Sequence record: PZ465523.1
DNA: 49,119 nt
DNA from: a phage
Direction: 5' to 3' (one strand)
In this document: positions 8,518-49,119 of the stretch, piece after piece
How positions within the stretch are numbered: position 1 is the first letter of the stretch
Layout: each line of letters begins with the position of its first letter
Notes under the pieces: model-generated
What the model saw: the letters and a program-made list of their open reading frames with translations, nothing else
The model's database searches: none
Told to the model about the DNA's origin: nothing
Made by a program: the position numbers and the translations under genes

Positions 8518-8577
8518 TTCCAGATCTCCAAATAAAAAACGCGTAGAAGGATGTTAACCCGCTACGCGTCGTTTGTT

Positions 8578-9030
8578 TTAACTAAAAATGCTATTTGTCG
8601 TTCCGATATCTTCCTTCTTCACGACGCGCATAAATTTCTTGTTCTTGCATCGCTTCTCAAGGCACTTGCCGTTACCGTCAAACTTCAGATCGAATCGAAG
8701 CCATGCGGCCCGAAACCCTTTGCAACCCTGACGGCGGTAAGCGCGATGTGCAGATTCAGCACCTTGCCACGAAATCATATTGCGATCCTTCCAGCCTTGC
8801 ACGGTCTGATTGCTAACCTTCAGAGCTTTTGCGCAGGCCGCTGGTCCGCCGTAATATTCAATAAGAGCGTCAAGTCGCGCTCGCAGTCCCGCTCGTGTTT
8901 CTTCTTTATGAATATAGAAGCCGCAGCGCTGTCGAGGCTTTTTGTCTTTACCGCGTCGCGTTCCGTTGTTACCATTAATGTGACGTTTATCGATTTCACC
9001 AGTTGACTCTGCGATACGTTGTATATTCAT
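8578..9030 (-). CDS. Helix-turn-helix DNA-binding protein, candidate regulator
   Basis: Cro/YdaS-like HTH segment GGPAACAKALKVSNQTVQGWK; basic N-terminus; start set at ATG 9030 after RBS AGGAGAA. Confidence 0.6.
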   Translation of the reverse strand: MNIQRIAESTGEIDKRHINGNNGTRRGKDKKPRQRCGFYIHKEETRAGLRARLDALIEYYGGPAACAKALKVSNQTVQGWKDRNMISWQGAESAHRAYRRQGCKGFRAAWLRFDLKFDGNGKCLEKRCKNKKFMRVVKKEDIGTTNSIFS

Positions 9031-9043
9031 ATTAATTCTCCTG

Positions 9044-9086
9044 TAGCACTTTTTGCTAAAAACGTTTACTGTATGTCGTGTATTAT
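9044..9086 (+). promoter_or_regulatory. Box-type promoter: TAGCACTTTTTGCTAAAAA, 22 nt, TATTAT
   Basis: Box plus -10-like hexamer at fixed spacing, upstream of helicase gene. Confidence 0.55.
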
Positions 9087-9124
9087 AGCGTAAACGATAC
9101 AACGATTCAAAGGATTAAATAGCC

Positions 9125-11143: not shown

Positions 11144-11556
11144 TTACAGACAATGGTGATTATTTAGAGTTTTACGAGCGAGATCCTAGCGACACTCGAA
11201 AGGAGGACGCTCATCAGGTGGATTGCGTGTCCTGGCTGAAATACAATTTCCCTCACCTTCTATTTTGGCACACTGTCAATGAAGGTGAAAAAACAATCAC
11301 ATCGGCACTAAGGGATGAACAAGCTGGATTACTTAAAGGCGTGTCAGACTTCGTTATCCTGATTGGTGTCAACTCACGATACCCGTTTGCAGCAATAGAA
11401 CTCAAGCGGGTTAATAAGTCAGGCAAAGGAAAGGCGTCACCAGTCAGCGATAAGCAAAGGGAGTTTCTTCGAAAGGTCCGGGAGCGTGGAGGCTTCTCTG
11501 CCGTCGCATACGGATTCGCGCAATTCAAGATCTCAATTTACGAAATGATGAAATAG
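11140..11556 (+). CDS. VRR-NUC-like nuclease domain protein
   Basis: 138 aa with conserved D...E.K spacing typical of VRR-NUC; start overlaps helicase stop. Confidence 0.5.
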   Translation: MITDNGDYLEFYERDPSDTRKEDAHQVDCVSWLKYNFPHLLFWHTVNEGEKTITSALRDEQAGLLKGVSDFVILIGVNSRYPFAAIELKRVNKSGKGKASPVSDKQREFLRKVRERGGFSAVAYGFAQFKISIYEMMK

Positions 11557-11596
11557 CACTTTTTGTTAAAACTGCCGGAATGGAATCTGGCATTAT
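11552..11596 (+). promoter_or_regulatory. Box-type promoter: AATAGCACTTTTTGTTAAAA, 22 nt, CATTAT
   Basis: Upstream of Dam gene; box overlaps stop of VRR-NUC gene. Confidence 0.55.
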
Positions 11597-11623
11597 TATC
11601 TCACCAAAACGAGAGGACTAAAA

Positions 11624-12337
11624 ATGAAAGACTTCAATGATATTGAAACCATCGACTTTGCAGAGACTGGTTGCTCATTCACTCGCGAAGCAATAGCATC
11701 AGGCGGTTATTATCAGGCGCTAAAAACGCCAACCTGCAAAGAGATTTCAGGACGTCGATACAAGGGAACAAATACCCCTGACGCCGTTCGTGATTTATGG
11801 TCAACTCCGCGCGAGGTTATTTCATACCTTGAGGGGCGCTACGGAAAATATGATCTCGACGCTGCGGCAAGCGAAGAAAATAAAGTTTGCGAGAAGTTTT
11901 ATTCTCAGGAAACAAACTGCTTAAAACGTTGGTGGGGTAAAAATAAGCATGTGTGGTTAAATCCTCCTTATAGTCGACCTGATATATTCATCAAGAAGGC
12001 GATCGAGCAAATGGAGCACAACAATCAGATTGATATTCTGTTGCCTGCTGATAATTCTACAGCGTGGTTTACTGAGGCTCGACAGCACGCGGCTGAGATT
12101 ATCTGGATTGAAGCGGATTTGACTGAGGATATCGACGGGAACGAGTACGCACGATCCGGTCGCCTGGCGTTCATATCAGGTGAAACCGGGAAGGCCGTTG
12201 ATGGTAATAACAAAGGTTCTGTGATTTTCATTATGCGCGAACTGAAAGATGGTGAGGTTCAACAGACTCACTATATCCCAATCACAAGCATTTGCCCTTC
12301 AGTTAAAAACAAGCGCGCAAAATTAAGGAAAGTATGA
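11624..12337 (+). CDS. dam: DNA N6-adenine methyltransferase (phage Dam family)
   Basis: DLDAAAS and NPPYS motifs. Confidence 0.75.
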   Translation: MKDFNDIETIDFAETGCSFTREAIASGGYYQALKTPTCKEISGRRYKGTNTPDAVRDLWSTPREVISYLEGRYGKYDLDAAASEENKVCEKFYSQETNCLKRWWGKNKHVWLNPPYSRPDIFIKKAIEQMEHNNQIDILLPADNSTAWFTEARQHAAEIIWIEADLTEDIDGNEYARSGRLAFISGETGKAVDGNNKGSVIFIMRELKDGEVQQTHYIPITSICPSVKNKRAKLRKV

Positions 12338-12585
12338 TGAACGAGAAAATGATTCCTGTTAAGTTAACAGATCAAGGTTTATGGCTACTTTATCGAGCTA
12401 CGTGCTGCGAAATTATGGAGCGAAACGGATTGACTCAGGATGTTATTGGTTGCGATCTGTGGGAGTTCACTAGTTCTCTTGATATGTCTTTCGATGAGAT
12501 AAAAAATGAACATATAGAGAGTTGGCCTTCAATTATCCAGAAAGACGTAGAGGAACTTAAAGCAGATACGATCGCGCAGCACTAA
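12334..12585 (+). CDS. Hypothetical protein
   Basis: ATG overlapping Dam stop; stop codon lies inside the next box. Confidence 0.5.
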   Translation: MMNEKMIPVKLTDQGLWLLYRATCCEIMERNGLTQDVIGCDLWEFTSSLDMSFDEIKNEHIESWPSIIQKDVEELKADTIAQH

Positions 12586-12619
12586 TTGCTAAAAATACCC
12601 GGCGAAAGTCGGGTATAGT
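12578..12619 (+). promoter_or_regulatory. Box-type promoter: AGCACTAATTGCTAAAA, 22 nt, TATAGT
   Basis: Hairpin TACCCG-gcgaaagt-CGGGTA inside the spacer. Confidence 0.55.
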
Positions 12620-16868: not shown

Positions 16869-18437
16869 TTAACCCATCAGTCGAGGATTTATGAAAACAA
16901 TATCATCAATACGGCAAGTGTAATTCATCTCTTCTAGCGTGATTAGAAGACTGTCGATTCGCTCAGATACTTTCTGTTGACCGTTGAACGGAGTAACGTT
17001 CCGGCACTTTGCAACAATACTATGAATAGGTGCGCGGCCTTTGTTCTTCTTCGCGATCTCAGTGATAACATCAATCAGCTTACGAGATTCAGCCTCATCA
17101 CCAGCATACCCGGCAGCGCTGGCAGACGACAGATAAGTCCTGGAAAGCTCATTGAAGATCATGATCGCTTCCTGCATTGTTTCAAGGTCAATCTCACGGT
17201 TGGAACGGTTCGGTGATTCACCCTCCCAATTCTTGATCGTGTGGAGAACCGAAGCAATACGCAAAGCGTGCTTATCGAACTTGCCGAGATGACCGCGAAG
17301 CATTGAGTGAGAGTATTTCCCCCCGGCGGCGAAATCAGGCTCCATCGCCTGGCGCGCAAGGTTTAATTCACGCATAGCATTACGGCTCACAGAGAGAACA
17401 ACGTTGTCCTCCTTCATGATGTTGTGCACGAGTCTGTAATATTTGCTAACCAGTCCGCGATCGACTTCCTTATACAGCGCATCGCCATTTTCATCACAAA
17501 GAATACGAGTACCTAAAAGCGGCTCCTCGCGAACCAACAAGAAACGTTCGGATACACCTATACCGCGCTGGCCTGCATCCATGATGCCCTTGATTGTTTC
17601 ATCCTGCGCAATGACGCAGATCGAACCGACCGGGCAAAGAGATAAGTTGTTGTCCTGATTTGAACGCGCGACCTCCATATGGTTTTTATCCCACGCCTTA
17701 AGGATAAGCTCACTGTTAGATTTCTTATCTGAACCGCCATACGTAAGCCCGAGCAATGTATTGATTGCCGTTGCCTCGTCAGATATTACGGAAAAGTGAC
17801 CTTGCACTGCCGCCACTTTCGCAAGACCTTCAGGTGTAGGATCTGATACAGCGAAAACAATATCAGCCATCTTCTTGATCTTCTCTTCCAGCTTTTCTTT
17901 GTCCTCGTACAGAGCCGCCGTCGTGTTGCCTTTAGGATCGTTTTTTATTTCCTTCTCGACCTGACGTAGCTGACTGGTTAAACGGATACGTTCCTTTTTG
18001 CGCTCTTCATTCAGTCGCTGAATCTCCGCACGCATAGGTGTAATCGCCGCTGAGTTAATCGCTGATTTACCTGTTGATGGTGGCTGACTGATTACCATGT
18101 AAAGCGCTGTCGGCTGTTCTTCTCCATGATATTGCACCCAAAACTTCCCGAGCATCGCGGCTGATATGCAACCGATAAAATGAGCATACGCGGATGAAAC
18201 CGGGAACTGGACTGATTCAGCTTTTGCTTTTGCATATTCGAATACCAGGTTATCGCCACCTAACGAAATCAGAGGGAACTTATCGTTTCCGCTGTTGATA
18301 TCGATCGGATCTTGCCAAAAAGAAACTGAATCCCCGTAACTGTTTTCACGAATTGCGATCGCCACCGGATTCACTCCAGTGCTATTTGCGATCTCAATAA
18401 TTTGTTGGTAATTCAGTTTTGGCTTAATGTTAAACAT
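16869..18437 (-). CDS. Large early protein, possibly replication-associated; function unresolved
   Basis: 523 aa; start set at ATG 18437 after RBS AAGGAG; no clear Walker A. Confidence 0.6.
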   Translation of the reverse strand: MFNIKPKLNYQQIIEIANSTGVNPVAIAIRENSYGDSVSFWQDPIDINSGNDKFPLISLGGDNLVFEYAKAKAESVQFPVSSAYAHFIGCISAAMLGKFWVQYHGEEQPTALYMVISQPPSTGKSAINSAAITPMRAEIQRLNEERKKERIRLTSQLRQVEKEIKNDPKGNTTAALYEDKEKLEEKIKKMADIVFAVSDPTPEGLAKVAAVQGHFSVISDEATAINTLLGLTYGGSDKKSNSELILKAWDKNHMEVARSNQDNNLSLCPVGSICVIAQDETIKGIMDAGQRGIGVSERFLLVREEPLLGTRILCDENGDALYKEVDRGLVSKYYRLVHNIMKEDNVVLSVSRNAMRELNLARQAMEPDFAAGGKYSHSMLRGHLGKFDKHALRIASVLHTIKNWEGESPNRSNREIDLETMQEAIMIFNELSRTYLSSASAAGYAGDEAESRKLIDVITEIAKKNKGRAPIHSIVAKCRNVTPFNGQQKVSERIDSLLITLEEMNYTCRIDDIVFINPRLMG

Positions 18438-18466
18438 CACAATAAACTCCTTAGTTGACGGTGTGA

Positions 18467-18512
18467 ATGATACACCGCCAATGTTACACGCGTTTTGCAA
18501 AAAGTGCTATTG
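18467..18512 (-). promoter_or_regulatory. Box-type promoter: AATAGCACTTTTTGCAAAA, 22 nt, TATCAT
   Basis: Hairpin CGGTGT-atcattc-ACACCG downstream. Confidence 0.5.
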
Positions 18513-18513
18513 G

Positions 18514-18930
18514 TTATAAGTATTTGGCCTCAAAGGTTGTGCCGTCAGCAATACTAAAACCAATCTCTTCGCGGAATAATGTCCAGCGGCAACCGTCCTC
18601 ATCAAAGATGTAACCAGCCACTCCACCGAGAGCGCGACCGCTTTCCACCTGGTAACGCTTGCCAACTTTGAATGATTTTTTCATTGGGTTGCGATGGTCA
18701 AGCCCGGTACACTTGAGTGTTTTGGTTTTAAGTTCAGTGAATTTTGCGAAGAAGATTTCATCAGATCCGTGAATCTGTAATTCATCGTGCTTATCAAGTT
18801 TTAAATACTTACCGCACTTTAACTTAACCTCGCGAGTGCCATCGTAGCGTTCTCGACCTTTGTACATGTTGTTAACTTCAAATCCTGTGATTTTGTCTGC
18901 TGAAGTGCATTTAAGTTTGATGGATTTCAT
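18514..18930 (-). CDS. Cys beta-hairpin repeat family protein (2-3 repeats)
   Basis: Repeats IKLKCTSADKITGFEV / VKLKCGKY / LKCTGLDHRNPMKKSFKVGKRYQV; start at ATG 18930 after CAGGAG. Confidence 0.6.
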   Translation of the reverse strand: MKSIKLKCTSADKITGFEVNNMYKGRERYDGTREVKLKCGKYLKLDKHDELQIHGSDEIFFAKFTELKTKTLKCTGLDHRNPMKKSFKVGKRYQVESGRALGGVAGYIFDEDGCRWTLFREEIGFSIADGTTFEAKYL

Positions 18931-18966
18931 TGCGTTCACTCCTGATTGGTTATCTTGAATAAGGCC

Positions 18967-19013
18967 ACTTTATCAAATGACATTACGTCAATATTAACAA
19001 ATCGTGCTATTTA
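18967..19013 (-). promoter_or_regulatory. Box-type promoter: AAATAGCACGATTTGTTAA, 22 nt, TAAAGT
   Basis: Read on minus strand. Confidence 0.5.
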
Positions 19014-19223
19014 CCAGGGAATATAATCGTCGTCGTCATTATCAACAATATCATCGCCGGGCATCTCGAAGTCGGGATTATATTCACTTTCTGCGTCCAT
19101 ATCCATATTCCCTAGCGCGTCGTCAAGCGTAATTTCTTTATATGCAACCTTGATACACCATTCCGCACTAAGCCCGGCATCGAGCGCGGCAAAATAACGA
19201 GTCCAGAAATTATCCTGTTCCAT
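19011..19223 (-). CDS. Small acidic protein (70 aa)
   Basis: C-terminus DDIVDNDDDDYIPW. Confidence 0.5.
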   Translation of the reverse strand: MEQDNFWTRYFAALDAGLSAEWCIKVAYKEITLDDALGNMDMDAESEYNPDFEMPGDDIVDNDDDDYIPW

Positions 19224-19226
19224 TAA

Positions 19227-19451
19227 TTAGCTCCATGAATTAATGTAAATCGAGTTAGCCTCAAGCGTTGCGCGAACATCCGCATCTGTTGCATTTACTA
19301 AGCGCGATCCTGGTGTGCTGCCAATAACGTTATTACCGTTCCGAGCCTTAGTTACCGTCATTGAAACAAAACCGGAAGGCTTATCCATTTTGATAACTAC
19401 ACGTCCTTTCGCGTTCAGATGCTTGATGATATTCTCAACTTTAATACTCAT
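19227..19451 (-). CDS. Hypothetical protein (74 aa)
   Basis: ORF-track ORF with ATG start. Confidence 0.5.
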   Translation of the reverse strand: MSIKVENIIKHLNAKGRVVIKMDKPSGFVSMTVTKARNGNNVIGSTPGSRLVNATDADVRATLEANSIYINSWS

Positions 19452-19484
19452 TTTTAATTCCTTTATTTCGCTTGGTGTGGGAGT

Positions 19485-19530
19485 AATATACCTTACTCCC
19501 TATTTATTGTCTTTAGCAATTAGTGCTATC
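19485..19530 (-). promoter_or_regulatory. Box-type promoter: GATAGCACTAATTGCTAAA, 23 nt, TATATT
   Basis: Hairpin GGGAGTAA-ggtatat-TTACTCCC. Confidence 0.55.
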
Positions 19531-19672
19531 AGTACTCGGAAATTACTTTGCACTCTTTGATTGTTCCACCTAGAACTACTTTCTGCATCATTGCTTTTTG
19601 GTGACTATCGTAAACGCGAACATTTTTTACGCTGTTAAATTTGCCAGTATAGAAAGTGTGAATATAAATCAT
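19529..19672 (-). CDS. Small protein (47 aa) not in ORF track
   Basis: ATG overlaps upstream stop as ATGA; its own TGA abuts the box TAGCAC. Confidence 0.4.
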   Translation of the reverse strand: MIYIHTFYTGKFNSVKNVRVYDSHQKAMMQKVVLGGTIKECKVISEY

Positions 19673-19989
19673 TTTTTACCGTCCCATGTTTGATACGCCG
19701 TCACAAGGTTAATGCTATGGTCGAACTCGTCAATGCTAAGCGATCCGATTCGAACCAGTTCTTTATCATGCTTAATATCGATCATCCGGCTATATGGATG
19801 ACCTGGCACGTATTTGAACAGTCGCTTACTGTCGGCAATATCAGCGTTGATTCCATAGAATCGGCCCACTGCCGCCTTCACGCGCTCCATGATGTTTTTT
19901 TCGTGGATTGCCGCCGCGTTATTCAATGCCGCGACCGTGCTTCCGTTAATCTTCGGTGATTTAGTTGTGATTTTATAAGTGTGGTTCAT
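19669..19989 (-). CDS. Hypothetical protein (106 aa)
   Basis: Start at ATG 19989 after RBS AGGGGGAA. Confidence 0.55.
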   Translation of the reverse strand: MNHTYKITTKSPKINGSTVAALNNAAAIHEKNIMERVKAAVGRFYGINADIADSKRLFKYVPGHPYSRMIDIKHDKELVRIGSLSIDEFDHSINLVTAYQTWDGKK

Positions 19990-20005
19990 TATTCCCCCTA
20001 ACCAG

Positions 20006-20569
20006 TCAGGATAGCTTTCGCGCTTCATCAATGATAACAGGTTCGAGACGCTCAAGTCGAACGCGGAACGTGTTCATAAATCCTTCGTTATTCTTCAATA
20101 GCTCGAAGGCGTCTGTTGCCTCAATGGCGCTATTTCCCATGTAGGCAACTACGCTCTTTTGCGTCTTGCGTGAGATCGCCACCACGCGGTAAATATTATC
20201 ACTCATACAATGCCTCCTTAACACGGTGCGCAATGCAGGAATTGACGGTGATTGAGTAGTTTGCCACGCCCATAATGCAATATTGCCAAGCTCGGTACGC
20301 ATTGATGGATTGTTAAGCTGGATTATCGTCTCTCCAGTATCTTTATCTACGAAGCGAGACACGCCCAAATGGTCAACCACGCGCGTTACGCGGTTCACGC
20401 ACTCCATTGCATCACTTACGCCGTAATAAGCGCTCAGAGCGGCTCTCACGGCCTTCTCTTGCTTGTTGTAAATCTTGCGCGCTATGTTCTCGATCGCAAT
20501 CTGCTCTTTTTCGTCAGTCTGTATTGCCGTGCTTGCTGAGAAGTCCAAGTCAATGAACTGCTTAAACAT
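20006..20569 (-). CDS. Hypothetical protein (187 aa)
   Basis: Start at ATG 20569 after RBS GAGGAAAG, downstream of box promoter at 20601..20645. Confidence 0.55.
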   Translation of the reverse strand: MFKQFIDLDFSASTAIQTDEKEQIAIENIARKIYNKQEKAVRAALSAYYGVSDAMECVNRVTRVVDHLGVSRFVDKDTGETIIQLNNPSMRTELGNIALWAWQTTQSPSIPALRTVLRRHCMSDNIYRVVAISRKTQKSVVAYMGNSAIEATDAFELLKNNEGFMNTFRVRLERLEPVIIDEARKLS

Positions 20570-20600
20570 GATTCTTTCCTCGTTTGCTGTTGATGGGATG

Positions 20601-20645
20601 ACTATACCAGCCATCCCGGATGCGCGTTTAGCAAAAAGTGCTATC
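20601..20645 (-). promoter_or_regulatory. Box-type promoter: GATAGCACTTTTTGCTAAA, 22 nt, TATAGT
   Basis: Hairpin GGGATG...CATCCC overlapping the -10. Confidence 0.55.
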
Positions 20646-20646
20646 C

Positions 20647-20751
20647 TCAGCGACCAACTGCATCCATAATGATTAAGAACATGATCGCGACCAGGCATCC
20701 TGACAGAGAGAAAAGCACCGATCCAATTGCATAATTAAAAAACTTTGCCAT
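20647..20751 (-). CDS. Small membrane peptide (34 aa)
   Basis: MAKFFNYAIGSVLFSLSGCLVAIMFLIIMDAVGR; RBS GAGGG; stop abuts box. Confidence 0.45.
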   Translation of the reverse strand: MAKFFNYAIGSVLFSLSGCLVAIMFLIIMDAVGR

Positions 20752-20756
20752 AATTA

Positions 20757-20984
20757 CCCTCTGAAACTATCAATTGTGTCGTTGATGTATTTCACTTGAG
20801 CCTCTACGTCAGACGTTGCGATATACTGGAATGTATCGTAATCATCCCACAAGTCGACAAGCTCAACCTTTGTATGATGCTATTTTAAGCCGCCCATGTG
20901 ACCGTAATGTGTGCGGTAGACGATGAATCCCTCATCATTGGCGCGCTGAATTGCTTTCTTTAATCCGGGGTGTTTAATTGCCAC
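20757..20984 (-). pseudogene. Reading frame interrupted by a single in-frame TAG; possible pseudogene or readthrough gene
   Basis: GTG start, 34 codons, TAG at 20880..20882, then 41 more in-frame codons to TAA at 20754..20756. Confidence 0.3.
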
Positions 20985-21015
20985 TTGGTCATTTCTCTGA
21001 TTGGTTGATGTTTTA

Positions 21016-21060
21016 AATATACCCCGATCACCTTCGGGGCGTTTAGCAATTCGTGCTATT
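21016..21060 (-). promoter_or_regulatory. Box-type promoter: AATAGCACGAATTGCTAAA, 22 nt, TATATT
   Basis: Hairpin CCCCGA-aggtga-TCGGGG in spacer. Confidence 0.55.
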
Positions 21061-21394
21061 AATCAATATCGAACTCAGCGGCATACGCTTTCTTGAAGCC
21101 AGCTTCACGCATGGTGCGCTTGCTGATTTTGCGCGGGAATTTGTACTGGCTGTTAGGCATAACCCACCAGAAGCAAGCAGTTTCACGAACGATTTCATAT
21201 TTACCGTAACGGGTGAAGGTGTCACGTTCCGCGTCCGGCTGGTTAACACAGGTCAGGAATTTAGCCGCTTTGTCTTCAGTTTTGATTTCTTCCCATACGA
21301 AGGAATCCATACCGTTAACATTGCAAGCTACCATGATGTACTCAACGCCGTTTTCGATTTTGATGATTTCGTTACCGCGATTTTCGTATTTCAT
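21059..21394 (-). CDS. Hypothetical protein (111 aa)
   Basis: ATG with RBS AGGAGCAGGAAA; C-terminus reads through the box. Confidence 0.5.
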   Translation of the reverse strand: MKYENRGNEIIKIENGVEYIMVACNVNGMDSFVWEEIKTEDKAAKFLTCVNQPDAERDTFTRYGKYEIVRETACFWWVMPNSQYKFPRKISKRTMREAGFKKAYAAEFDID

Positions 21395-21432
21395 TTTCCT
21401 GCTCCTGATGTGTATCTCGTTTCGATGAGGTA

Positions 21433-21478
21433 ATTATGCCAAACTACCCCGATCGAGTTTTAACAAAAAGTGCTATTT
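21433..21478 (-). promoter_or_regulatory. Box-type promoter: AAATAGCACTTTTTGTTAAAA, 22 nt, CATAAT
   Basis: Box encodes the Dcm C-terminus NSTFC and its stop. Confidence 0.55.
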
Positions 21479-22164
21479 GCGATCGCTTTGAAAAATCCAC
21501 GCGGCGACAGGGATCGTATCAGTTTGGTCTTTGCCGACTTGCCGCCCAACTTGCTATGCTGCGCAGAGTACCCTTCAGGAAGGCTTACAGGTTTTCTCTC
21601 CGGCATGACAAAATCGTCCGAGGTCCAAAGACACGTCTTTTTCGGATAAGCATCGCGCGGCGCAATATACATCGGGAACCAGGGATGCGAGTCATTCTCA
21701 GGAAGATAGCCGCCATACTCCCAGGGATTGAATGAGTGATCTGGTTTTCTCCAGGCAGATGACAGAACGCTAACCGGATTCTCAATGATGTAAGTCACGC
21801 CCAGGGCGTCGCCAATATTCGCAGCAATCCGGGCGGTGGCAACGGCCTTCTCCTGGAATAAGGGATTGCGCTTACGCTTACTTGCAAAGTGACGAGCACC
21901 ACTAACAGCCAGGTCAGTGCATGGAGGAAAGGCCATAATGAAATCCGGCTTACCATACACACCCGCAATCGCATCACGTTCGAACGTCTCATCAATGAAG
22001 ACGTTCACATACTCAATGTTCGGATGCTGTACCCGAGCATTGTACTTTGCATAATCTCCGTGATCGGCCCCGTCAAAGTTGAAGCACATCACCTTATGAC
22101 CTTGCTTAGCCAGTTCATGACCAGCAAGGCCGGAACCGTCGAATAGTGACCAAATTAGTTTCAT
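21460..22164 (-). CDS. dcm: DNA cytosine-5 methyltransferase
   Basis: LFDGSGLAG (motif I-like), FPPCTDLAVSG (motif IV PC), IIENP (motif VI ENV); start at ATG 22164 after AGGAGA. Confidence 0.7.
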   Translation of the reverse strand: MKLIWSLFDGSGLAGHELAKQGHKVMCFNFDGADHGDYAKYNARVQHPNIEYVNVFIDETFERDAIAGVYGKPDFIMAFPPCTDLAVSGARHFASKRKRNPLFQEKAVATARIAANIGDALGVTYIIENPVSVLSSAWRKPDHSFNPWEYGGYLPENDSHPWFPMYIAPRDAYPKKTCLWTSDDFVMPERKPVSLPEGYSAQHSKLGGKSAKTKLIRSLSPRGFFKAIANSTFC

Positions 22165-22197
22165 TGCAAATCTCCTGCTGATTGGTTGATGTGATGA

Positions 22198-22242
22198 ATC
22201 ATACCCTGCCAACATAGCTAAGTCGTTAGCAAAAAATGCTAT
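22198..22242 (-). promoter_or_regulatory. Box-type promoter variant: AATAGCATTTTTTGCTAAC, 23 nt, TATGAT
   Basis: Immediately upstream of Dcm leader CAACCAATCAGCAGGAG. Confidence 0.5.
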
Positions 22243-22427
22243 TCCAATAGTTGCTCATTATTCCATCAATAGTGGAATAGTTGGAATAATTTTGATTGTG
22301 ATTGATTGCGAATGATTAAACGTGATTATTGCATTGTGTGCAACAGTTGGTTGATTTGTTGATGAGAATGCAATGATTGTGAGAGGGAGGATTTAGTGTT
22401 ACCCGGTTCGCTTGGTAGTCACCTCCA

Positions 22428-22447
22428 TTTTTAGCAAAAAGTGCTAT
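22428..22447 (-). promoter_or_regulatory. Box GATAGCACTTTTTGCTAAAA without a matching -10 at the usual spacing
   Basis: Distal-most box of the leftward arm, followed by hairpin GGAGG...CCTCC. Confidence 0.45.
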
Positions 22448-22856
22448 CCGTCTATATCTTCGTTGTAATTGTCGTAATAGTTGTATACTATCGGGGGTGT
22501 TACAAAATGGCCCCGAAGGGATGGGCCTATATATACTAAAATATCTATATATAATAATAAGATAGATAATATATATATATTTATTTATTATATTATATAT
22601 TGGTATGTAATCGGCGTAATAGGTGCAACCGCATTTTTGGAAGGTGGCATATATTTCAGGGTGCATAGTATAAAAAACATACTATTCCGCGCGTCGAAAT
22701 GGATGTGTGTGCTTTTATAGAAAAAGTCGGTTGCATCGGTTGCACTGGTTACAAAAATAAAAAATGCAGCTATAGACATTGACGCGCCTAGCCAGGTTGC
22801 TGTAACATGTTTTTCGGGGCGGCAAGTTACGCCCGTAGACAACGAGGTATAGACAA

Positions 22857-27795: not shown

Positions 27796-27907
27796 ACCTA
27801 TACGAATTTATTGCAGCACATCCTGTATTGACGGTTATCATCCTGTTAATCATCAATCACACTATCATCAATGTGGCAAAATTATTTTTAGGGAGATACT
27901 AACATGA
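27788..27907 (+). CDS. Cys/His-rich 39-aa peptide between phosphatase and kinase
   Basis: ATG overlaps phosphatase 3' end; stop TGA overlaps kinase ATG (ATGA); sequence MSEPIRIYCSTSCIDGYHPVNHQSHYHQCGKIIFREILT. Confidence 0.4.
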   Translation: MSEPIRIYCSTSCIDGYHPVNHQSHYHQCGKIIFREILT

Positions 27908-28476
27908 AAACAGCTATCATTTTAAACGGCGCACCTAGAGCGGGAAAAGACACTATCGGATGCATCCTGGCTGACACTTACGATCACGTAGCGCTCCGCA
28001 GCTTCAAGGCTCCAATGTTTGAGATTGCCCGGGCAATCCTGGGTGAAGCTAACTACGAGTATTTCATGTTCTTGTATGATGACCGTCGATATAAAGAAGA
28101 GCCAGCATCAATCCTGAACGGTAAAAGCCCGCGCCAGTTTATGATCTGGATTAGCGAGGAAGTCATCAAGCCGCAGTTCGGAAATCGCTTCTTCGGTATG
28201 CGAGCGGAAAGCGAGGTGAAAGAGTCGAACTCCCTTTCGGTATTTACTGATGGTGGATTCAAAGACGAAATCTTGCAGATGATTGAAGGTGATATCCAAG
28301 TCAAGCTATGCCGCATACATCGCAACGGCTGCAACTTCGATAACGACAGTCGAGATTATATCTACTTGGATGATATGATCGGTGTCAACGGTTATCAGGA
28401 ATGTGATTTCTTCTCTGTCGAAGGTCATCCAGAAATTACCGCTCAGCACATAGCCGCCACGTTCATCAATAAATAG
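27904..28476 (+). CDS. P-loop nucleotide or polynucleotide kinase
   Basis: Walker A NGAPRAGKDT near N-terminus; stop TAG inside box. Confidence 0.6.
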   Translation: MKTAIILNGAPRAGKDTIGCILADTYDHVALRSFKAPMFEIARAILGEANYEYFMFLYDDRRYKEEPASILNGKSPRQFMIWISEEVIKPQFGNRFFGMRAESEVKESNSLSVFTDGGFKDEILQMIEGDIQVKLCRIHRNGCNFDNDSRDYIYLDDMIGVNGYQECDFFSVEGHPEITAQHIAATFINK

Positions 28477-28516
28477 CACGAATTGCTAAAACGTCGATGG
28501 GGTGATTTGATATAGT
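28472..28516 (+). promoter_or_regulatory. Box-type promoter: AATAGCACGAATTGCTAAAA, 22 nt, TATAGT
   Basis: Read directly; kinase stop embedded. Confidence 0.55.
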
Positions 28517-28549
28517 TACCTCATCGACAACCAAGAGAGACAAATCGAA

Positions 28550-28759
28550 ATGATGGTATCAACTGATAAGTTTTTCACTTGCACTAAAACTTCTGAAGTA
28601 TTCGAACTGGTTCATACTGATAATGGTGATTTCATGCATGACGGTTGCGACGTTTTTATCGAAGTGAAAGAAAGCGACTATGACGACGGAGTTTATTATA
28701 ACCCGGCAGTGAACACTCAGTTTTTTACCCCGATCGAAGAGGAAGGAGAAGAGGCATGA
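28550..28759 (+). CDS. Small acidic protein (69 aa)
   Basis: C-terminus PIEEEGEEA; ATG after RBS AGAGAGA. Confidence 0.5.
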   Translation: MMVSTDKFFTCTKTSEVFELVHTDNGDFMHDGCDVFIEVKESDYDDGVYYNPAVNTQFFTPIEEEGEEA

Positions 28760-29100
28760 TCACGATTAACCTGTCAGAGAAGCAAGCTCGTGAAATCCTG
28801 GACACGATCGGCAACCAGTTACACATCAAAGGCGCTACCGCCGAACTTCTTAATCAGATCGAAAGGCAGCTCACTCCGGTGTCAACGAATCAATCTGAGT
28901 TCGCAGCATGGAAGAGTGAGCGCATCTTGCCAAATATCATCAAGACATGGAAGCGCAAGCATAAAAAAGAAATCAACGTTGAGGATTTATTTACCGATGA
29001 ATTAAGTCCTTCAAAGGTTGCTCAATATCAGTTGCGATACATGGAATCAGTTTGCAATCAGGTTTTAGGTGTTAATTTTTCATTCGGGAGAGGCAAATAA
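28756..29100 (+). CDS. Hypothetical protein (114 aa)
   Basis: Overlapping start/stop with neighbours. Confidence 0.5.
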   Translation: MITINLSEKQAREILDTIGNQLHIKGATAELLNQIERQLTPVSTNQSEFAAWKSERILPNIIKTWKRKHKKEINVEDLFTDELSPSKVAQYQLRYMESVCNQVLGVNFSFGRGK

Positions 29101-29330
29101 TGTTCGGTTTAAGTGAAGCGGAATGGAATGTTGTAAAGCGAGCAGCAAAGGAATTAAATAAATTCGTCAGTGGCATGAAGAAAGAAGATCGGAAAAACGA
29201 CAAGATCATGATTGACGTTATTTCTACTCACCACAAAAAGGTCGAATTACTCATAGATCGCTACAAATTTGTCTGGACTGCCGGGTATATTGCCGGGCGC
29301 GTAGGTAACAAAGAAGGGGATTACGAATAA
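29100..29330 (+). CDS. Hypothetical protein (76 aa)
   Basis: ATG overlaps upstream stop. Confidence 0.5.
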   Translation: MFGLSEAEWNVVKRAAKELNKFVSGMKKEDRKNDKIMIDVISTHHKKVELLIDRYKFVWTAGYIAGRVGNKEGDYE

Positions 29331-29533
29331 TGGCTAATTTACCAAAGAGAGGAGAGCAGGTTCGATGTGTCACTTCACGCAATAGCGACGCTTTCTCAGC
29401 CGGGTGCGCGTACGACGTAGAAAAGGTTAGTAAATCAAAGAGGCTTGTATTCGTGTACGGCGACGATGGAAACTTGCATGAGATTGATTACCCGCAGGAT
29501 ATGACTAAGGGACAATTCGAAATTAATGATTGA
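29330..29533 (+). CDS. Small protein of the Cys beta-hairpin family
   Basis: VRCVTSRNSDAFSAGCAYDV motif. Confidence 0.5.
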   Translation: MANLPKRGEQVRCVTSRNSDAFSAGCAYDVEKVSKSKRLVFVYGDDGNLHEIDYPQDMTKGQFEIND

Positions 29534-29697
29534 CCTACGTCACTGAGCGGTGATAGTATTAATCCCGTAGACAGACGAGGCGCAATTAGGCGCAACGCGT
29601 GAGACGATTCTCACTCTTCCAGCTAACAAGCTCGGTTGCATAGTGGTTAAGCAACGCCGCAGACCCGTAAGCGGCAAAAATTCAAGAGGATTGCATA
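29530..29697 (+). promoter_or_regulatory. Sigma70-like promoter (TTGACC ... TAGTAT) plus a highly structured ~130-nt leader
   Basis: Hairpins GAGA-cgat-TCTC, GTTGC...GCAAC, GCCGC...GCGGC; motif CCCGTAGACAGACGAGG shared with 22832..22847. Confidence 0.45.
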
Positions 29698-29859
29698 ATG
29701 CAAAACACTAAAGATGAATCAGTCAAAATTGAAATTAAAGTAACTCGCAACGGTGAAACCACTCGTTATAAAAAACGATTAAATCCTGGCGAGGCTGTTA
29801 TTGGTCGAATTGCTGGCGTTATGATTAAGGCGCAGGAAGATGAAGCGATTCAAAGTTAA
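29698..29859 (+). CDS. Small protein (53 aa) not in ORF track
   Basis: ATG after RBS AAGAGGA. Confidence 0.4.
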   Translation: MQNTKDESVKIEIKVTRNGETTRYKKRLNPGEAVIGRIAGVMIKAQEDEAIQS

Positions 29860-30025
29860 ATTAATCATTCGAAAGATGGGAATGTTTTGCCAGTCGTGCA
29901 AGCAATCTTTCGAAACTGAATTATCAGCAACCAGTCAGGCAGAAGCCATCACGAAAGCAAAAAAACTTTCCGGCGCTAACCTTGACACTCACAAAATAAA
30001 TATTGAATTAATCAAGGAGATTTAA
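29840..30025 (+). CDS. Small CxxC-containing protein; start uncertain
   Basis: ORF-track ORF overlapping the previous one; contains CQSC. Confidence 0.35.
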   Translation: MKRFKVKLIIRKMGMFCQSCKQSFETELSATSQAEAITKAKKLSGANLDTHKINIELIKEI

Positions 30026-30026
30026 C

Positions 30027-30254
30027 ATGACAATTTTTTTATTGATTATCGCTGGTGTTGTTATTTTTGGTGCTGGTTTGTTTGCTGGCTTCGCACTTGT
30101 TGCGGCAGCAATTGCGATGGACGCGAAGGATAAAACTGTTGTATGGCTGACCTACTCACCTAAGAAGGACCAATGGGAAATGACTGGCGACCTTGCTCAC
30201 TGCTATTCCAAAGCTAAGACCCACCCTAAAGGCATTAAACGACTATTGTCGTGA
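30027..30254 (+). CDS. Small membrane protein (75 aa)
   Basis: N-terminal hydrophobic helix IFLLIIAGVVIFGAGLFAGFALVAAAIA. Confidence 0.55.
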   Translation: MTIFLLIIAGVVIFGAGLFAGFALVAAAIAMDAKDKTVVWLTYSPKKDQWEMTGDLAHCYSKAKTHPKGIKRLLS

Positions 30255-30264
30255 TAAACACTAA

Positions 30265-30286
30265 CCCGCTCCGGCGGGTTTTTTTA
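30265..30286 (+). terminator. Rho-independent terminator ending the rightward early operon
   Basis: CCCGC-tcc-GGCGGG stem followed by TTTTTTT. Confidence 0.7.
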
Positions 30287-30303
30287 TGCCTGCAATATGG
30301 TAA

Positions 30304-30322
30304 AATAGCACTAAATGTTAAA
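30304..30322 (+). promoter_or_regulatory. Degenerate box AATAGCACTAAATGTTAAA upstream of terminase small subunit
   Basis: TATGGT hexamer just upstream; RBS AAAGAGG downstream. Confidence 0.4.
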
Positions 30323-30338
30323 CAAAGAGGATGGATTT

Positions 30339-30863
30339 ATGAGTGAACCTAAGAACGCTCCCGTTGTTCAGGGAGGTAATTTCAAAGAGCTATACAAGAA
30401 AAAGTTCGGCACTGTTCTTGCGAAGAACCGGGCAATGACTCCTGAGCAACTATTCGATCTGTCAGTGAAGTATTTTGAGTGGGCCGAGGACAATGCGATC
30501 AAGGCGTCAGAATCAGCCAGCTTTCAGGGTGGCGTTTATGAATCTCTTGTTCATAAGCCGCGCGTCTTCACCTGGACCGGATACCGACTATTTATCGGTG
30601 CAAGCGAGGCCGCAATCATTAAGTGGAAGCGAGAGGAAGAATACAGTGAGGTTATGGAGTTTGTGGAATCGGTAATCAACGAGCAAAAATTCCAGCTTGC
30701 CGCCAACGGTGTTATTAATGCCTCCTTTATCGGCAAGGATCTCGGAATCGATAAGCCAGCCTCAATAAATATCGAAAACTCGTCAGCCTCCGCATCGACA
30801 GTAGTCGCCACTACTGAGGATGCAATGAAAGAGGCAGTAAACAGCATTCTTGATATGCTTTAA
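30339..30863 (+). CDS. Terminase small subunit
   Basis: Position directly before large terminase; ATG 30339 after RBS AAAGAGGA. Confidence 0.6.
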   Translation: MSEPKNAPVVQGGNFKELYKKKFGTVLAKNRAMTPEQLFDLSVKYFEWAEDNAIKASESASFQGGVYESLVHKPRVFTWTGYRLFIGASEAAIIKWKREEEYSEVMEFVESVINEQKFQLAANGVINASFIGKDLGIDKPASINIENSSASASTVVATTEDAMKEAVNSILDML

Positions 30864-30902
30864 CGTTACGGGCGCGCGAGCGCCCACATGGGAGACTTAA
30901 TC

Positions 30903-32471
30903 ATGATTCAATGGGAAGACCTTAACGCAACGCAGAAGTTAGCGATCAAGAAAATGAGCGAGGCCAATTTCGAAAAAATGATTCGGATCTGGTTCCAGCT
31001 TATGCAGGCGCAGCAGTTCCAGCCTAACTGGCATCACCTTTACCTATGTCACGAAGTGGAGGAAATTATTGCAGGGCGGCGAGGGAATACAATCTTTAAC
31101 GTCACGCCAGGTTCCGGTAAAACTGAAGTGTTCTCAATTCACCTTCCGGTGTACGCAATGCTCAAGTGTAAGAAGGTGCGAAACCTTAACGTGTCGTTTG
31201 CCGACAGCTTGGTTAAGCGTAACAGTAAGCGTGTCCGTGAGATTATCAGCAGCAACGAATTTCAAGAGCTATGGCCTTGCAAATTCGGTACATCGAAAGA
31301 TGAGGAGATGCAGGTTCTTAACGAAGATGGAAAGGTTTGGTTTGAGCTAATCTCCGCTGCGGCTGGCGGTCGTATTACTGGTTCGCGTGGTGGGTACATG
31401 ACGCCTGGATTCTCCGGGATGGTAATGCTCGACGATATCGATAAGCCTGATGATATGTTCTCAAAGGTTAAGCGTGAGCGTACGCACATGCTATTGAAAA
31501 ACACCATTCGATCCCGTCGTATGCACAACGAGACGCCGATTATTGCGATTCAGCAGCGACTACATGCCCAGGACTCAACCTGGTTCATGATGAATGGCGG
31601 CATGGGTATTGAGTTTGACCAAATCTCAATTCCGGCGCTGGTGACGGAAGAATACGGGAAGACACTTCCTGATTGGTTGCAGCCTTACTTTGAGCGTGAT
31701 GTTTTATCGTCTGATTATGTAGAATTGGATGGCGTTAAGCATTACTCTTTTTGGCCCAGCAAGGAAAGTGTTCACGACCTGTTAGCCTTGCGAGAAGCTG
31801 ACCAGTACACCTTTGACTCTCAGTATCAGCAGAAGCCGATCGCGCTTGGTGGCTCCGTGTTTAACTCGGAGTGGTGGACTTATTACGGCAGCAGCCTTGA
31901 CGCTGACGAGCCAGATCCTGGCAAATATGATTACCGTTTTATCACAGCCGATACTGCTCAGAAGACAGGCGAGCTAAACGACTACACGGTATTTTGTTTG
32001 TGGGGCAAGAAGAATGATAAGGTTTACTTTATCGACGGCATTCGCGGAAAGTGGGAAGCGCCGGATATGGAGAGGCAATTTACAGCTTTCGTCAATCAGG
32101 CATGGAGGCACAATAAATCAATGGGGGTACTTCGTAAAATCTATGTGGAAGATAAGGCGAGCGGTACGGGCTTAATCCAGAACCTAAGGAAAAAGACTCC
32201 GATCTCTATCACTCCATTGCAGCGTAACAAGGATAAAGTTACCCGAGCGATGGATGCTCAGCCAGTCATTAAGGCTGGTCGCGTGGTTCTGCCAGAAGAG
32301 CACCCCATGCTTGCGGAAATTATCGCGGAACATAGCGCATTCACTTACGATGACACTCACCCGCATGATGATATCGTCGATAACTTCATGGATGCGGCGA
32401 ATATCGAATTACTGACAATTGACGATCCTATCGAGCGAATGAAGCGACTCGCCGGGATGGTTAAGCGGTAA
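30903..32471 (+). CDS. Terminase large subunit
   Basis: Walker A VTPGSGKT; C-terminal nuclease-like acidic residues; start at ATG after GGGAGA. Confidence 0.8.
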   Translation: MIQWEDLNATQKLAIKKMSEANFEKMIRIWFQLMQAQQFQPNWHHLYLCHEVEEIIAGRRGNTIFNVTPGSGKTEVFSIHLPVYAMLKCKKVRNLNVSFADSLVKRNSKRVREIISSNEFQELWPCKFGTSKDEEMQVLNEDGKVWFELISAAAGGRITGSRGGYMTPGFSGMVMLDDIDKPDDMFSKVKRERTHMLLKNTIRSRRMHNETPIIAIQQRLHAQDSTWFMMNGGMGIEFDQISIPALVTEEYGKTLPDWLQPYFERDVLSSDYVELDGVKHYSFWPSKESVHDLLALREADQYTFDSQYQQKPIALGGSVFNSEWWTYYGSSLDADEPDPGKYDYRFITADTAQKTGELNDYTVFCLWGKKNDKVYFIDGIRGKWEAPDMERQFTAFVNQAWRHNKSMGVLRKIYVEDKASGTGLIQNLRKKTPISITPLQRNKDKVTRAMDAQPVIKAGRVVLPEEHPMLAEIIAEHSAFTYDDTHPHDDIVDNFMDAANIELLTIDDPIERMKRLAGMVKR

Positions 32472-32525
32472 TAAATGAGATATAATCAGGGCTGTCAATT
32501 GACGGCCCTTTTTATTGGAGGAAAC

Positions 32526-33809
32526 ATGAAAATTGTTAAACATGATGGATATAACGATATTTTTAACGGCGGTGCAGATGGATCGCCTAAGCCATTCTTT
32601 ATGTCTGATGCATCATATCACGTCGGTTCTTTCTACAACGACAACGCAACCGCGAAGCGAATTGTGGATGTTATCCCGGAAGAGATGGTGACGGCTGGCT
32701 TTAAAATGTCAGGTGTTAAGGATGAAAAAGAGTTCAAGTCTTTATGGGATAGCTACAAACTTGATTCAAGTCTGGTGGATCTTCTTTGTTGGGCGAGACT
32801 TTACGGTGGCGCGGCGATGGTGGCAATCATCAAAGACAACCGGATGTTAACCAGTCAGGCAAAGCCTGGAGCTAAACTTGAAGGCGTCCGAGTTTACGAT
32901 CGATTTGCTATCACTGTTGAAAAGCGAGTCACCAATGCAAGATCCCCTCGCTATGGTGAGCCTGAAATCTACAAGGTATCCCCTGGCGACAATATGCAGC
33001 CGTATCTGATTCATCACTCAAGAGTCTTTATTGCTGATGGTGAGCGAGTAACGCAACAGGCAAGAAAACAGAATCAAGGATGGGGAGCATCGGTATTGAA
33101 CAAGTCACTGATTGATGCAATCTGTGACTATGATTACTGTGAATCTCTGGCTACTCAGATCTTGAGACGTAAGCAACAGGCTGTATGGAAGGTCAAAGGT
33201 CTTGCCGAAATGTGTGATGATGATGATGCTCAGTACGCCGCGCGCCTGCGACTTGCTCAGGTTGATGATAACTCCGGCGTGGGCCGTGCGATCGGTATCG
33301 ATGCTGAGACTGAGGAATATGACGTTCTCAACTCTGATATCAGCGGAGTTCCTGAGTTCTTATCAAGCAAGATGGACCGCATCGTCTCCCTGTCAGGTAT
33401 TCATGAGATTATCATCAAGAATAAGAACGTAGGCGGCGTATCAGCGAGCCAAAACACAGCGCTTGAGACTTTCTATAAGCTAGTCGATCGCAAACGCGAG
33501 GAAGATTACAGGCCGCTTCTTGAGTTCTTGTTGCCGTTCATTGTTGATGAGGAAGAGTGGTCGATCGAGTTTGAGCCTTTGTCTGTTCCGAGTAAGAAAG
33601 AGGAATCAGAGATCACGAAGAATAACGTTGAGTCGGTTACGAAAGCTATCACTGAGCAAATCATCGATCTGGAAGAAGCTCGCGACACGTTGCGATCCAT
33701 TGCCCCTGAGTTCAAACTCAAGGATGGTAATAACATCAACATTCGCGAACCGGAAGAAACAACCGAACCGGAACCGGGATTAGGGGAGAAGTTAGAAGAT
33801 GAAAATTAA
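32526..33809 (+). CDS. Portal protein
   Basis: Size and position after terminase; start after RBS GGAGGAAAC. Confidence 0.7.
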   Translation: MKIVKHDGYNDIFNGGADGSPKPFFMSDASYHVGSFYNDNATAKRIVDVIPEEMVTAGFKMSGVKDEKEFKSLWDSYKLDSSLVDLLCWARLYGGAAMVAIIKDNRMLTSQAKPGAKLEGVRVYDRFAITVEKRVTNARSPRYGEPEIYKVSPGDNMQPYLIHHSRVFIADGERVTQQARKQNQGWGASVLNKSLIDAICDYDYCESLATQILRRKQQAVWKVKGLAEMCDDDDAQYAARLRLAQVDDNSGVGRAIGIDAETEEYDVLNSDISGVPEFLSSKMDRIVSLSGIHEIIIKNKNVGGVSASQNTALETFYKLVDRKREEDYRPLLEFLLPFIVDEEEWSIEFEPLSVPSKKEESEITKNNVESVTKAITEQIIDLEEARDTLRSIAPEFKLKDGNNINIREPEETTEPEPGLGEKLEDEN

Positions 33810-34551
33810 TGGCGTTGCAACACAGTGGCGCTATCCTGAAATGAGCGAGCGCGCAATGTCGCGCTCCCTACAGGATGTTGCAGCCAAACTAACTGAGAAA
33901 ATGCGTGACGAATTAAAACCGATGAAATTTGACGCTACTGACGAAGAGATAGATCAGACAGAAAGGTCATTGCTTGATTACGTCGAATCACTCATCGCTC
34001 CGATTATTGGTTCTCTATCATCCGTTGCGCTCACGATCTATAAATTCAACTCTAAGCAGTGGCTGCGCATCGCTCGAAATTCTGGAGGTAAGAAGAATCA
34101 AGCCGTGATGCTACTTGCCCTGATTGGTCCTACCGCTGCCGAAAGCTGGTACTCAGGACAATATAATCTATGGCGATCGCAGGTGACTACTTCTATCAGG
34201 AAATTTGCTGCCAACATGGTTACTGATTTCACTGATAAACTTCGTGCTGCATCCGGTCAGGGTAAAAGCAAGGATTTTGTTGTTGAACTTGCTAATGAGC
34301 GATTTGGTGTTTACCGGAATTGGGCCAAAAATAGAGCGTCGGGAATTGTTGGAACCTGGAACAGTAGACTAATGCGTCAGCGCATAAAAGACGCTGGAGT
34401 CTCTTACTATTTCTGGCGCGGGGTGATGGATTTACGCGAACGTGAAAAACATGTAAGATGGGAAGGTAAGCGCATAGCGGTAGATTCCGATCACGTATTC
34501 CCAGGTGAGGAATACAATTGCCGCTGTTGGGCTGTTCCATCGTTCACATAA
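33799..34551 (+). CDS. Head morphogenesis / minor capsid protein
   Basis: Position after portal; start overlaps portal stop. Confidence 0.55.
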   Translation: MKINGVATQWRYPEMSERAMSRSLQDVAAKLTEKMRDELKPMKFDATDEEIDQTERSLLDYVESLIAPIIGSLSSVALTIYKFNSKQWLRIARNSGGKKNQAVMLLALIGPTAAESWYSGQYNLWRSQVTTSIRKFAANMVTDFTDKLRAASGQGKSKDFVVELANERFGVYRNWAKNRASGIVGTWNSRLMRQRIKDAGVSYYFWRGVMDLREREKHVRWEGKRIAVDSDHVFPGEEYNCRCWAVPSFT

Positions 34552-34566
34552 AGGAGGTGCTGAATA

Positions 34567-35049
34567 GTGAATTTTAATGATTTGTTTTACCATGAAGGAA
34601 AGGATCTCATATGAAAGGTTAGCACATCAAGAAGGGTAAAGGTTGGTGATGTAGCAGGATGGAAGGATGAGCTAGGGTATGTTTATGTAAGAGTTAACGG
34701 TAAGCTAATTCCTGCTCATAGGATAATATGGGAGATGCACTACGGAAAAATTCCAGAAGGTATGGAGATAGACCACATAAATCATATAACCGACGATAAC
34801 AGGATTGAAAACTTAAGGCTGGTAACGAGGAAAGATAACTGCAAAAACGTATCCATGAGCAAATCTAACAAGAGCGGAGTGGTTGGAGTTAGCTGGTGCA
34901 AAAGGACTTGCAAATGGTTTGCATCAATTAGAGTTGATAGAAAGGAAAAGTTTTTGGGTAGATATGATAAAATTGAGGATGCAGCAGCAGCAAGAAAGGC
35001 GGCTGAGTTAAAATACAATTTTCACAAAAATCACGGGAGTAAAAAATGA
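34567..35049 (+). pseudogene. HNH homing endonuclease with AP2-like domain, interrupted by in-frame TGA at 34612..34614
   Basis: Strong RBS AAGGAGGTG + GTG 34567; TGA at codon 16; downstream EIDHINHITDDNRIENLRL...DNCKN and AP2-like WCKRTCKWFASIRVDRK. Confidence 0.55.
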
Positions 35050-47462: not shown

Positions 47463-49119
47463 ATGATTCAAAAAGTGATAAGCGGATCGAAAGGCGGTTC
47501 ATCTAAGCCGCATAAGCCAGTTGAGATGGAAGATAATCTAATCTCAATCAACAAAATCAAGATCCTGTTAGCTGTGTCTGATGGCGAGATTGACGAAACA
47601 TTCAGCCTAAAGCAGTTGATGTTTAACTCAGTCCCTGTGCAAAACGAGGATGGCTCATTTAACTTCGAGGGAGTAAATGCAGAGTTTAGGCCGGGGACGC
47701 AGACTCAGGAATATATCAAGGGGATGGAAGATAGCTCTAGTGAGGTAACTGTAAGCCGTGAGGTTACTACAGATAACCCATACACGATCTCAGTAACCAA
47801 CAAAACGCTTTCGGCAATCCGTATCAAAATGTTTATGCCTCGCGGCGTACGAATTGAAAGCAACGGTGATAAAAACGGCGTAAGAGTTGAGTATGAGGTG
47901 CAACAAGCTGTTGATGGCGGCTCGTTTGAGACGGTGCTCACCGATGTAATCGAAGGCAAAACAATGTCAGGTTATGATCGAAGCAGACGCATAAACCTTC
48001 CGAGCTTTAACAATCAGGTGATATTCAGAGTCGTTCGCAAAACTCCAGACTCTAACGATTCGAACGTGGTCGATGCTATTCAAGTGAAAAGCTACGCCGA
48101 GGTGATTGATGCAAAATTCCGTTACCCTCTGACTGGTCTTCTTTTCGTCGAGTTCGATTCGAAGATGTTCCCAAATCAGTTACCTACGATCTCAATTCGT
48201 AAGCGCTGGAAGATTGTAAACGTTCCGTCAAACTATGATCCAGAATCACGAACTTATAACGGAAATTGGGATGGAACTTTTAAGAAGGCGTGGACTAATA
48301 ATCCGGCTTGGGTGCTTTATGACCTGATGATTAATCAGCGTTATGGGCTGGATCAGAAAGAGCTTGGAATATCTGTCGATAAATGGGCGCTATATGAGGC
48401 GGCGCAATATTGCGACCAGATGGTTCCTGACGGAAAAGGCGGTACTGAGCCTCGCTACCTTTGCGACGTGATAATTCAGTCACAGACTGATGCGTACAAG
48501 GTGATTCGAGATATTTGCTCAATCTTCCGTGGAATGAGCTTTTGGAATGGTGAAAGCATTTCGGTAATCATCGACAGGCCGCGTGAACCTGCGTACATCT
48601 TCACTAACGACAACGTTGTTAACGGTGACTTCTCCTATACTTTCGCAAGCGAGAAAAGTATGTACACGACGTGCAACGTGATGTTTGATGATGAACAAAA
48701 CATGTATCAGCAGGACGTTGAGCCAGTATTCGATCGAGAAGCCACTCTACGGTTCGGGAATAACGTAACAAGCATTACAGCGATCGGGTGCACACGTCGA
48801 AGTGAAGCTAACCGTCGCGGACGATGGATTCTGAAAACAAACCTTCGCAGCACTACGGTAAACTTTGCTACCGGGCTTGAGGGTATGATTCCGACAATTG
48901 GAGATGTTGTAGCGATAGCTGATAACTTCTGGTCAAGTAACTTGACTATGAACCTGTCAGGGCGTTTGCTCGAAGTGTCTGGAAGTCAGATTTTCCTGCC
49001 GTTCCGCGTTGATGCTCGCGCAGGTGACTTTATTATCGTAAATAAGCCCGATGGCAAGCCCGCGAAGCGCACAATCTCAAGTGTTAGTGCGGATGGTAAG
49101 ACTATAGAGGTTAACATCG
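47463..49119 (+). CDS. Tail tip / host specificity protein (lambda J-like), N-terminal part; runs off window end and continues at 1..1884
   Basis: No stop before window end; frame continuous with 1..1884 through the repeat; about 1139 aa in total. Confidence 0.8.
   Translation, partial: MIQKVISGSKGGSSKPHKPVEMEDNLISINKIKILLAVSDGEIDETFSLKQLMFNSVPVQNEDGSFNFEGVNAEFRPGTQTQEYIKGMEDSSSEVTVSREVTTDNPYTISVTNKTLSAIRIKMFMPRGVRIESNGDKNGVRVEYEVQQAVDGGSFETVLTDVIEGKTMSGYDRSRRINLPSFNNQVIFRVVRKTPDSNDSNVVDAIQVKSYAEVIDAKFRYPLTGLLFVEFDSKMFPNQLPTISIRKRWKIVNVPSNYDPESRTYNGNWDGTFKKAWTNNPAWVLYDLMINQRYGLDQKELGISVDKWALYEAAQYCDQMVPDGKGGTEPRYLCDVIIQSQTDAYKVIRDICSIFRGMSFWNGESISVIIDRPREPAYIFTNDNVVNGDFSYTFASEKSMYTTCNVMFDDEQNMYQQDVEPVFDREATLRFGNNVTSITAIGCTRRSEANRRGRWILKTNLRSTTVNFATGLEGMIPTIGDVVAIADNFWSSNLTMNLSGRLLEVSGSQIFLPFRVDARAGDFIIVNKPDGKPAKRTISSVSADGKTIEVNI
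48999..49119. repeat. Terminal direct repeat, copy 2; identical to 1..121
   Basis: Exact identity read directly. Confidence 0.9.

Follow-up and report, generated by a model that had tools for sequence, protein, structure and literature searches.

An exact 121-bp terminal repeat in a T1-like phage record, best explained as an overlap left when a circular assembly was opened within the tail-tip gene

Our analysis has shown that the two ends of the phage record PZ465523.1, the whole of which (49,119 nucleotides) is referred to here as the window, carry the same 121 bp, and that the tail-tip gene interrupted by these ends is restored to one intact reading frame when the repeated segment is counted once. 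Based on these observations and on comparisons with related phages, we consider the repeat to be a linearisation artefact of a circular assembly that was opened within the tail-tip gene, a reading to which we assign a probability of about 93%. The map of the unit genome is circular and measures 48,998 bp, and the phage itself is T1-like (Drexlerviridae, Tunavirus). The features discussed below are collected in Table 1.

The terminal repeat was examined first as a property of the sequence. Window positions 1..121 and 48999..49119 are identical at 121 of 121 positions, with no mismatches, and 121 is the sole length at which the prefix of the record equals its suffix. A 40-nt probe taken from the repeat (up to three mismatches allowed) found exactly two copies in the window and no third, and repeat finding returned a two-copy family with a spacing of 48,998 nt. 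When the probe search was run on dinucleotide-preserving shuffles, none of 100 gave two matches. The terminal identity far exceeds chance. A first-pass annotation of the window had reported an exact 121-bp repeat at the record ends, and this was confirmed base for base, at a unique length.

The J-like tail-tip gene behaves differently according to how the repeat is counted. With one copy dropped, the window closes into a 48,998-bp circle in which 47463..48998 and 1..1884 join into a 3420-nt frame of 1139 codons and a stop, beginning with the ATG at 47463 and containing no internal stops. The literal join of 47463..49119 with 1..1884 is 3541 nt long, which is not a multiple of 3, and it reaches a stop at codon 556. 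It falls out of frame because 121 leaves a remainder of 1 on division by 3; since a doubled repeat shifts the frame, the ORF is open through the junction only with the repeat counted once. The first-pass annotation had described the J-like ORF as continuous through 47463..49119 and then 1..1884, which stands for a single repeat copy but fails for the join as written. Three domains were found in the collapsed ORF, all above the Pfam cut-offs: FNIII-A_GpJ at 92-217 (E = 1e-38), Phage-tail_3 at 340-488 (E = 3.4e-24) and Phage_Tail_Tip at 983-1118 (E = 2e-45). This is the domain order of lambda gpJ, and the gene follows gpL-, gpK- and gpI-like genes, as it does in relatives. The collapsed ORF is thus predicted to be a complete lambda-J-like tail-tip protein with its three domains in order. 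At 1139 aa, it is 33 aa shorter than the J of T1 (1172 aa), and the BLAST pieces overlap at 1228..1355, which suggests that the two genes differ by a repeat unit of 99 nt in their FN3-like middle part.

Table 1. Positions in the window of the repeat copies, the two parts of the tail-tip gene, the predicted packaging region and other genes discussed in the text.
Feature	Position	Strand	Remarks
Left repeat copy	1..121	+	Inside J-like gene, codons 513-553 of collapsed ORF
J-like gene, 3' part	1..1884	+	Codons 513-1139 plus stop; C-terminal Phage_Tail_Tip
Side tail fibre	5976..7481	-	501 aa; C-terminal Peptidase_S74 chaperone domain
DNA methyltransferase	21460..22215	-	PHROG 757; labelled methylase in many relatives
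T1 record-end homologue, predicted packaging-initiation region	22185..22448	+	Intergenic; from T1 BLAST
TGATT/TGATTG cluster	22293..22378	+	Densest of the genome; straddles T1-start homologue 22328
TerS (small terminase subunit)	30315..30863	+	P22 gp3-like; Pfam GP3_package; PHROG 606
TerL (large terminase subunit)	30888..32471	+	526/527 aa identical to T1 TerL (99.8%)
Portal protein	32475..33809	+	Pfam Phage_portal_3
J-like gene, 5' part	47463..48998	+	Codons 1-512; FNIII-A_GpJ, Phage-tail_3
Right repeat copy	48999..49119	+	Redundant; trimming gives the 48,998-bp unit genome

Related phages show how this gene looks when it is not divided by the ends of a record. With the two halves of J as queries, matches at 91-97% identity were obtained in about 60 records of Escherichia and Shigella phages, and always within one gene labelled as tail fiber or tail tip J; the J genes of other Tunavirus members are 91-95% identical to that of the window at the nucleotide level. 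In these related records of about 50 kb, J varies widely in position and is found on either strand, and the starts of records in this group are therefore arbitrary. In phage Lg3, the two query halves matched 19330..20986 and 17567..19450, overlapping by exactly 121 nt, and in T1 the overlap was 119 nt. Eight further loci were retrieved from GenBank, ENA and Logan by means of an identical 101-aa protein encoded downstream of J. All eight have an uninterrupted J of 1139 aa, the same form as in the window, with gpL-, gpK- and gpI-like genes ahead of it. Each aligned to the collapsed ORF over its full 3420 nt with no gaps, and the repeated segment falls at nucleotides 1537-1657 of the gene. Together with T1 and Shfl1, this makes ten relatives, and in 10 of 10 the 121-nt segment is present as a single copy within an uninterrupted J. 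The earlier suggestion that the record was a circularised or terminally redundant assembly opened inside the J-like gene is supported by this single copy in the intact J of relatives.

We also looked for other sequences of this particular phage. A 40-mer spanning the right boundary of the left repeat copy matched only Shfl1; a second 40-mer, placed across the left boundary of the right copy, matched nothing exactly in IMG/VR or in metagenome contigs. Exact-protein look-ups returned no record for the gpI-like and gpM-like proteins, the collapsed J, TerL, the portal, the major capsid protein or the tail fibre; the sole hit was the 101-aa protein encoded downstream of J. A second assembly of the same phage with a contiguous junction was not found in the collections searched. 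Continuity across the junction is supported by the intact reading frame and by relatives at 91-97% identity.

How such an overlap may have arisen can be outlined. Reads from a circularly permuted, terminally redundant phage population (or from concatemers) would have formed a cycle in the assembly graph. On output, this cycle would have become a linear contig with its break at an arbitrary point, which happened to fall within the tail-tip gene, and a de Bruijn assembler would have left an overlap of the size of its k-mer at both contig ends. We infer that the overlap is of this origin and that k was 121. This number is odd, is a permitted value of k and is below the SPAdes maximum of 127, and an odd overlap length of no more than 127 is typical of a k-mer overlap. 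A literature search on the use of k = 121 returned nothing specific. The closest likeness is to SPAdes contigs, the ends of which have been reported to carry artificial k-sized overlaps of 127 bp that need to be removed (PMC5923482). The present case is similar in its exact agreement of prefix and suffix, in its odd length within 127, in the arbitrary break within a gene, and in the intact colinear genome that results when one copy is trimmed; it differs in that the overlap is 121 bp rather than the SPAdes default of 127.

An overlap of the same kind could have come from another step, such as manual circularisation, long-read overlap-layout assembly or padding by the submitter. The sequence names no software, and exact overlaps can result from circle closure of any kind. 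Nevertheless, overlaps from long-read assembly are rarely exact and are usually far longer, and both the length of the repeat and the published 127-bp case point to a k-mer overlap, so we regard these other origins as improbable. The biology would be the same with any of them: a circular map, arbitrarily opened.

If the repeat were a genuine short direct terminal repeat (DTR), as in T7 and T3, the virion would contain a 49,119-bp molecule with fixed ends lying inside J, and infection would be followed by recombination or concatemer formation across the repeat, which would make J whole again. An exact prefix-suffix match is indeed the pattern expected of a DTR genome, and pipelines that seek DTRs would flag this record. 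The likeness to the T7 and T3 repeats (~150-500 bp) is only formal, in that the record begins and ends with an exact direct repeat. The physical termini of a genome with true DTRs are fixed, and its terminase is of another lineage, whereas the repeat described here falls within the reading frame of an essential gene and occurs once, internally, in each of ten relatives. In addition, the relatives do not carry the repeat at their genome ends, and none of the J-matching and pac-region-matching records examined opens at the position of the window's junction. With the terminase and pac evidence that follows, we judge a true DTR to be highly improbable. A still slimmer chance is given to the idea that a Tunavirus switched to fixed ends with a 121-bp DTR in its tail-tip gene despite retaining the terminase of T1; if true, such a switch would be a change in packaging mode without a change of enzyme.

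The terminase genes argue against a DTR-generating lineage. TerS is identical to that of T1 at 174 of 174 residues and TerL is nearly so (Table 1), and T1 packages by the pac-headful mechanism. The agreement extends to the surrounding DNA, where T1 5959..12596 and window 27901..34539 share 95.3% nucleotide identity. A phmmer search with TerL against PDB sequences gave no match. The terS ORF taken from 30315 is eight codons longer at its 5' end than terS as annotated in T1, and the alignment with the T1 protein begins at residue 9; the true start of terS is therefore probably the ATG at 30339. Previous research on T1 and TLS described pac-mediated headful packaging, in which the chromosome takes three or four variant forms that are terminally redundant and partially permuted (PMC11447400), and pac-initiated headful packaging of T1 is also given in PMC5238451. 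T1-like phages lack fixed ends, PhageTerm detects none, and their genomes have been oriented on T1 (PMC13164509, PMC7718038). The RefSeq record of T1 is annotated with a terminal repeat_region at 1..2800 (~2.8 kb, ~6%). Based upon these comparisons, we predict that the phage packages its DNA in the manner of T1, by pac-initiated headfuls. The circular assembly agrees with this mode of packaging, although it is not specific to it. The first-pass annotation had likewise expected pac-generated ends as in T1-like phages, which agrees with the near-identity of both terminase subunits to those of T1.

A counterpart of the T1 packaging region is conserved in the window, well away from the record ends. 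Whole-genome BLAST aligned T1 48694..48836 with window 22185..22327 and T1 2..121 with window 22329..22448, at 85-90% identity and in colinear order. Since these flanking alignments are colinear, position 1 of T1 corresponds to about 22328 in the window, on the same strand. This point is intergenic. It lies ~8.0 kb upstream of terS (30315/30339), and its distance from the ends of the record is 26.7 kb. The records of phages Chapo, JMPW1, JMPW2, phi2457T and FCWL1 start or end exactly at the homologue of ~22328, and others do so within ~90 bp. By homology with T1, we infer that pac lies at ~22328. The true physical ends had been expected elsewhere than at the record ends, probably near the terminase genes; the first part of this expectation is consistent with the T1 pac homologue, and the second holds only roughly, given the distance to terS. 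The same region contains a cluster of short TGATT and TGATTG motifs, with TGATT occurring 7 times per 120 bp against 0.34 expected and TGATTG 4 times against 0.09 expected. The densest TGATTG cluster of T1 likewise straddles the ends of its record. The cluster is a candidate recognition array that the small terminase might bind.

With this in mind, we can sketch how the chromosomes of this phage would be packaged. Terminase would recognise pac near 22328 and cut there, and packaging would proceed in the + direction for three to four successive headfuls of ~51.6 kb per head. This headful size is taken from T1 (48,836 + 2,800 = ~51.6 kb) and would give a terminal redundancy here of ~2.6-2.8 kb, with successive chromosomes starting near 22.3, 25.0, 27.6 and 30.2 kb. 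The headful ends would therefore spread from ~22328 towards the terminase genes. The ends of the record are 26.7 kb downstream of pac, and packaging would not arrive there until about the eleventh headful, as against the three to four reported for T1. We also considered whether the 121 bp could itself be the terminal redundancy of a headful and rejected this, as such redundancy should be ~2.6-2.8 kb long and situated beside pac rather than within J. The repeat is not the physical redundancy, because it amounts to 0.25% of the genome compared with ~6% in T1.

If the whole untrimmed window were circularised, the map would be 49,119 bp long and would contain two copies of the 121 bp side by side, as in a real tandem duplication within J. 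We reject such a duplication as having a negligible chance of being correct. It would put J out of frame, with a stop at codon 556, so that the C-terminal half would be lost entirely, and with it the Phage_Tail_Tip domain for receptor binding, and it would therefore be lethal. In addition, no duplicated 121-nt segment was found in the J of any of the ten relatives.

The reading as an assembly overlap has practical consequences for the record. The repeat is a record-keeping artefact and not a biological feature, and in itself it adds nothing new to the biology. We recommend that the record be cut back to 48,998 bp and preferably opened instead at ~22328, the homologue of the T1 start. An untrimmed record splits the annotation of the tail-tip gene in two and makes the genome appear 121 bp too long, and it may lead automated tools to call the phage 'DTR' and assign it the wrong packaging strategy.

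Apart from the place at which the record is opened (in J here, at pac in T1), the phage is colinear with Escherichia phage T1 at ~84-95% nucleotide identity over most of its length, and the unit genomes are of similar size (48,998 and 48,836 bp). The window contains two stretches that T1 lacks. One is a segment of ~1.5 kb (20645..22184) directly to the left of the pac-region homologue, and with it comes the DNA methyltransferase gene of Table 1. The other is an HNH_3 homing-endonuclease gene (34735..35049, + strand) in an insert at 34540..35032, between the head-morphogenesis and protease genes, where T1 is contiguous (T1 12596/12606). The closest T1 match to this insert belongs to another HNH gene (ST8), of which it forms a part, with 79% identity and on the opposite strand. 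The side tail fibre is divergent. At 501 aa, it is much shorter than that of T1 (728 aa), and lengths in relatives run from 594 to 690 aa; its DNA is almost unrelated to that of T1, with a match of only 99 nt, and the gene is probably a host-range hot spot.

Finally, the intergenic regions contain a dispersed repeat, AATAGCACnnnTTGCTAAAA, followed ~17 nt on by a hexamer resembling TATAGT or TATGAT. It occurs on the + strand at 7501, 11552, 12579, 14567, 24882, 26456, 26975 and 28472, and in the reverse orientation at 16324, 20620, 21452, 22218, 22423 and 41249, in each case pointing in the direction of local transcription. Judged by its sequence and placement, the repeat and its hexamer together have the look of a conserved promoter that includes an upstream box. 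Similar intergenic repeats, 21 bases in length, have been reported for phage TLS (PMC11447400).
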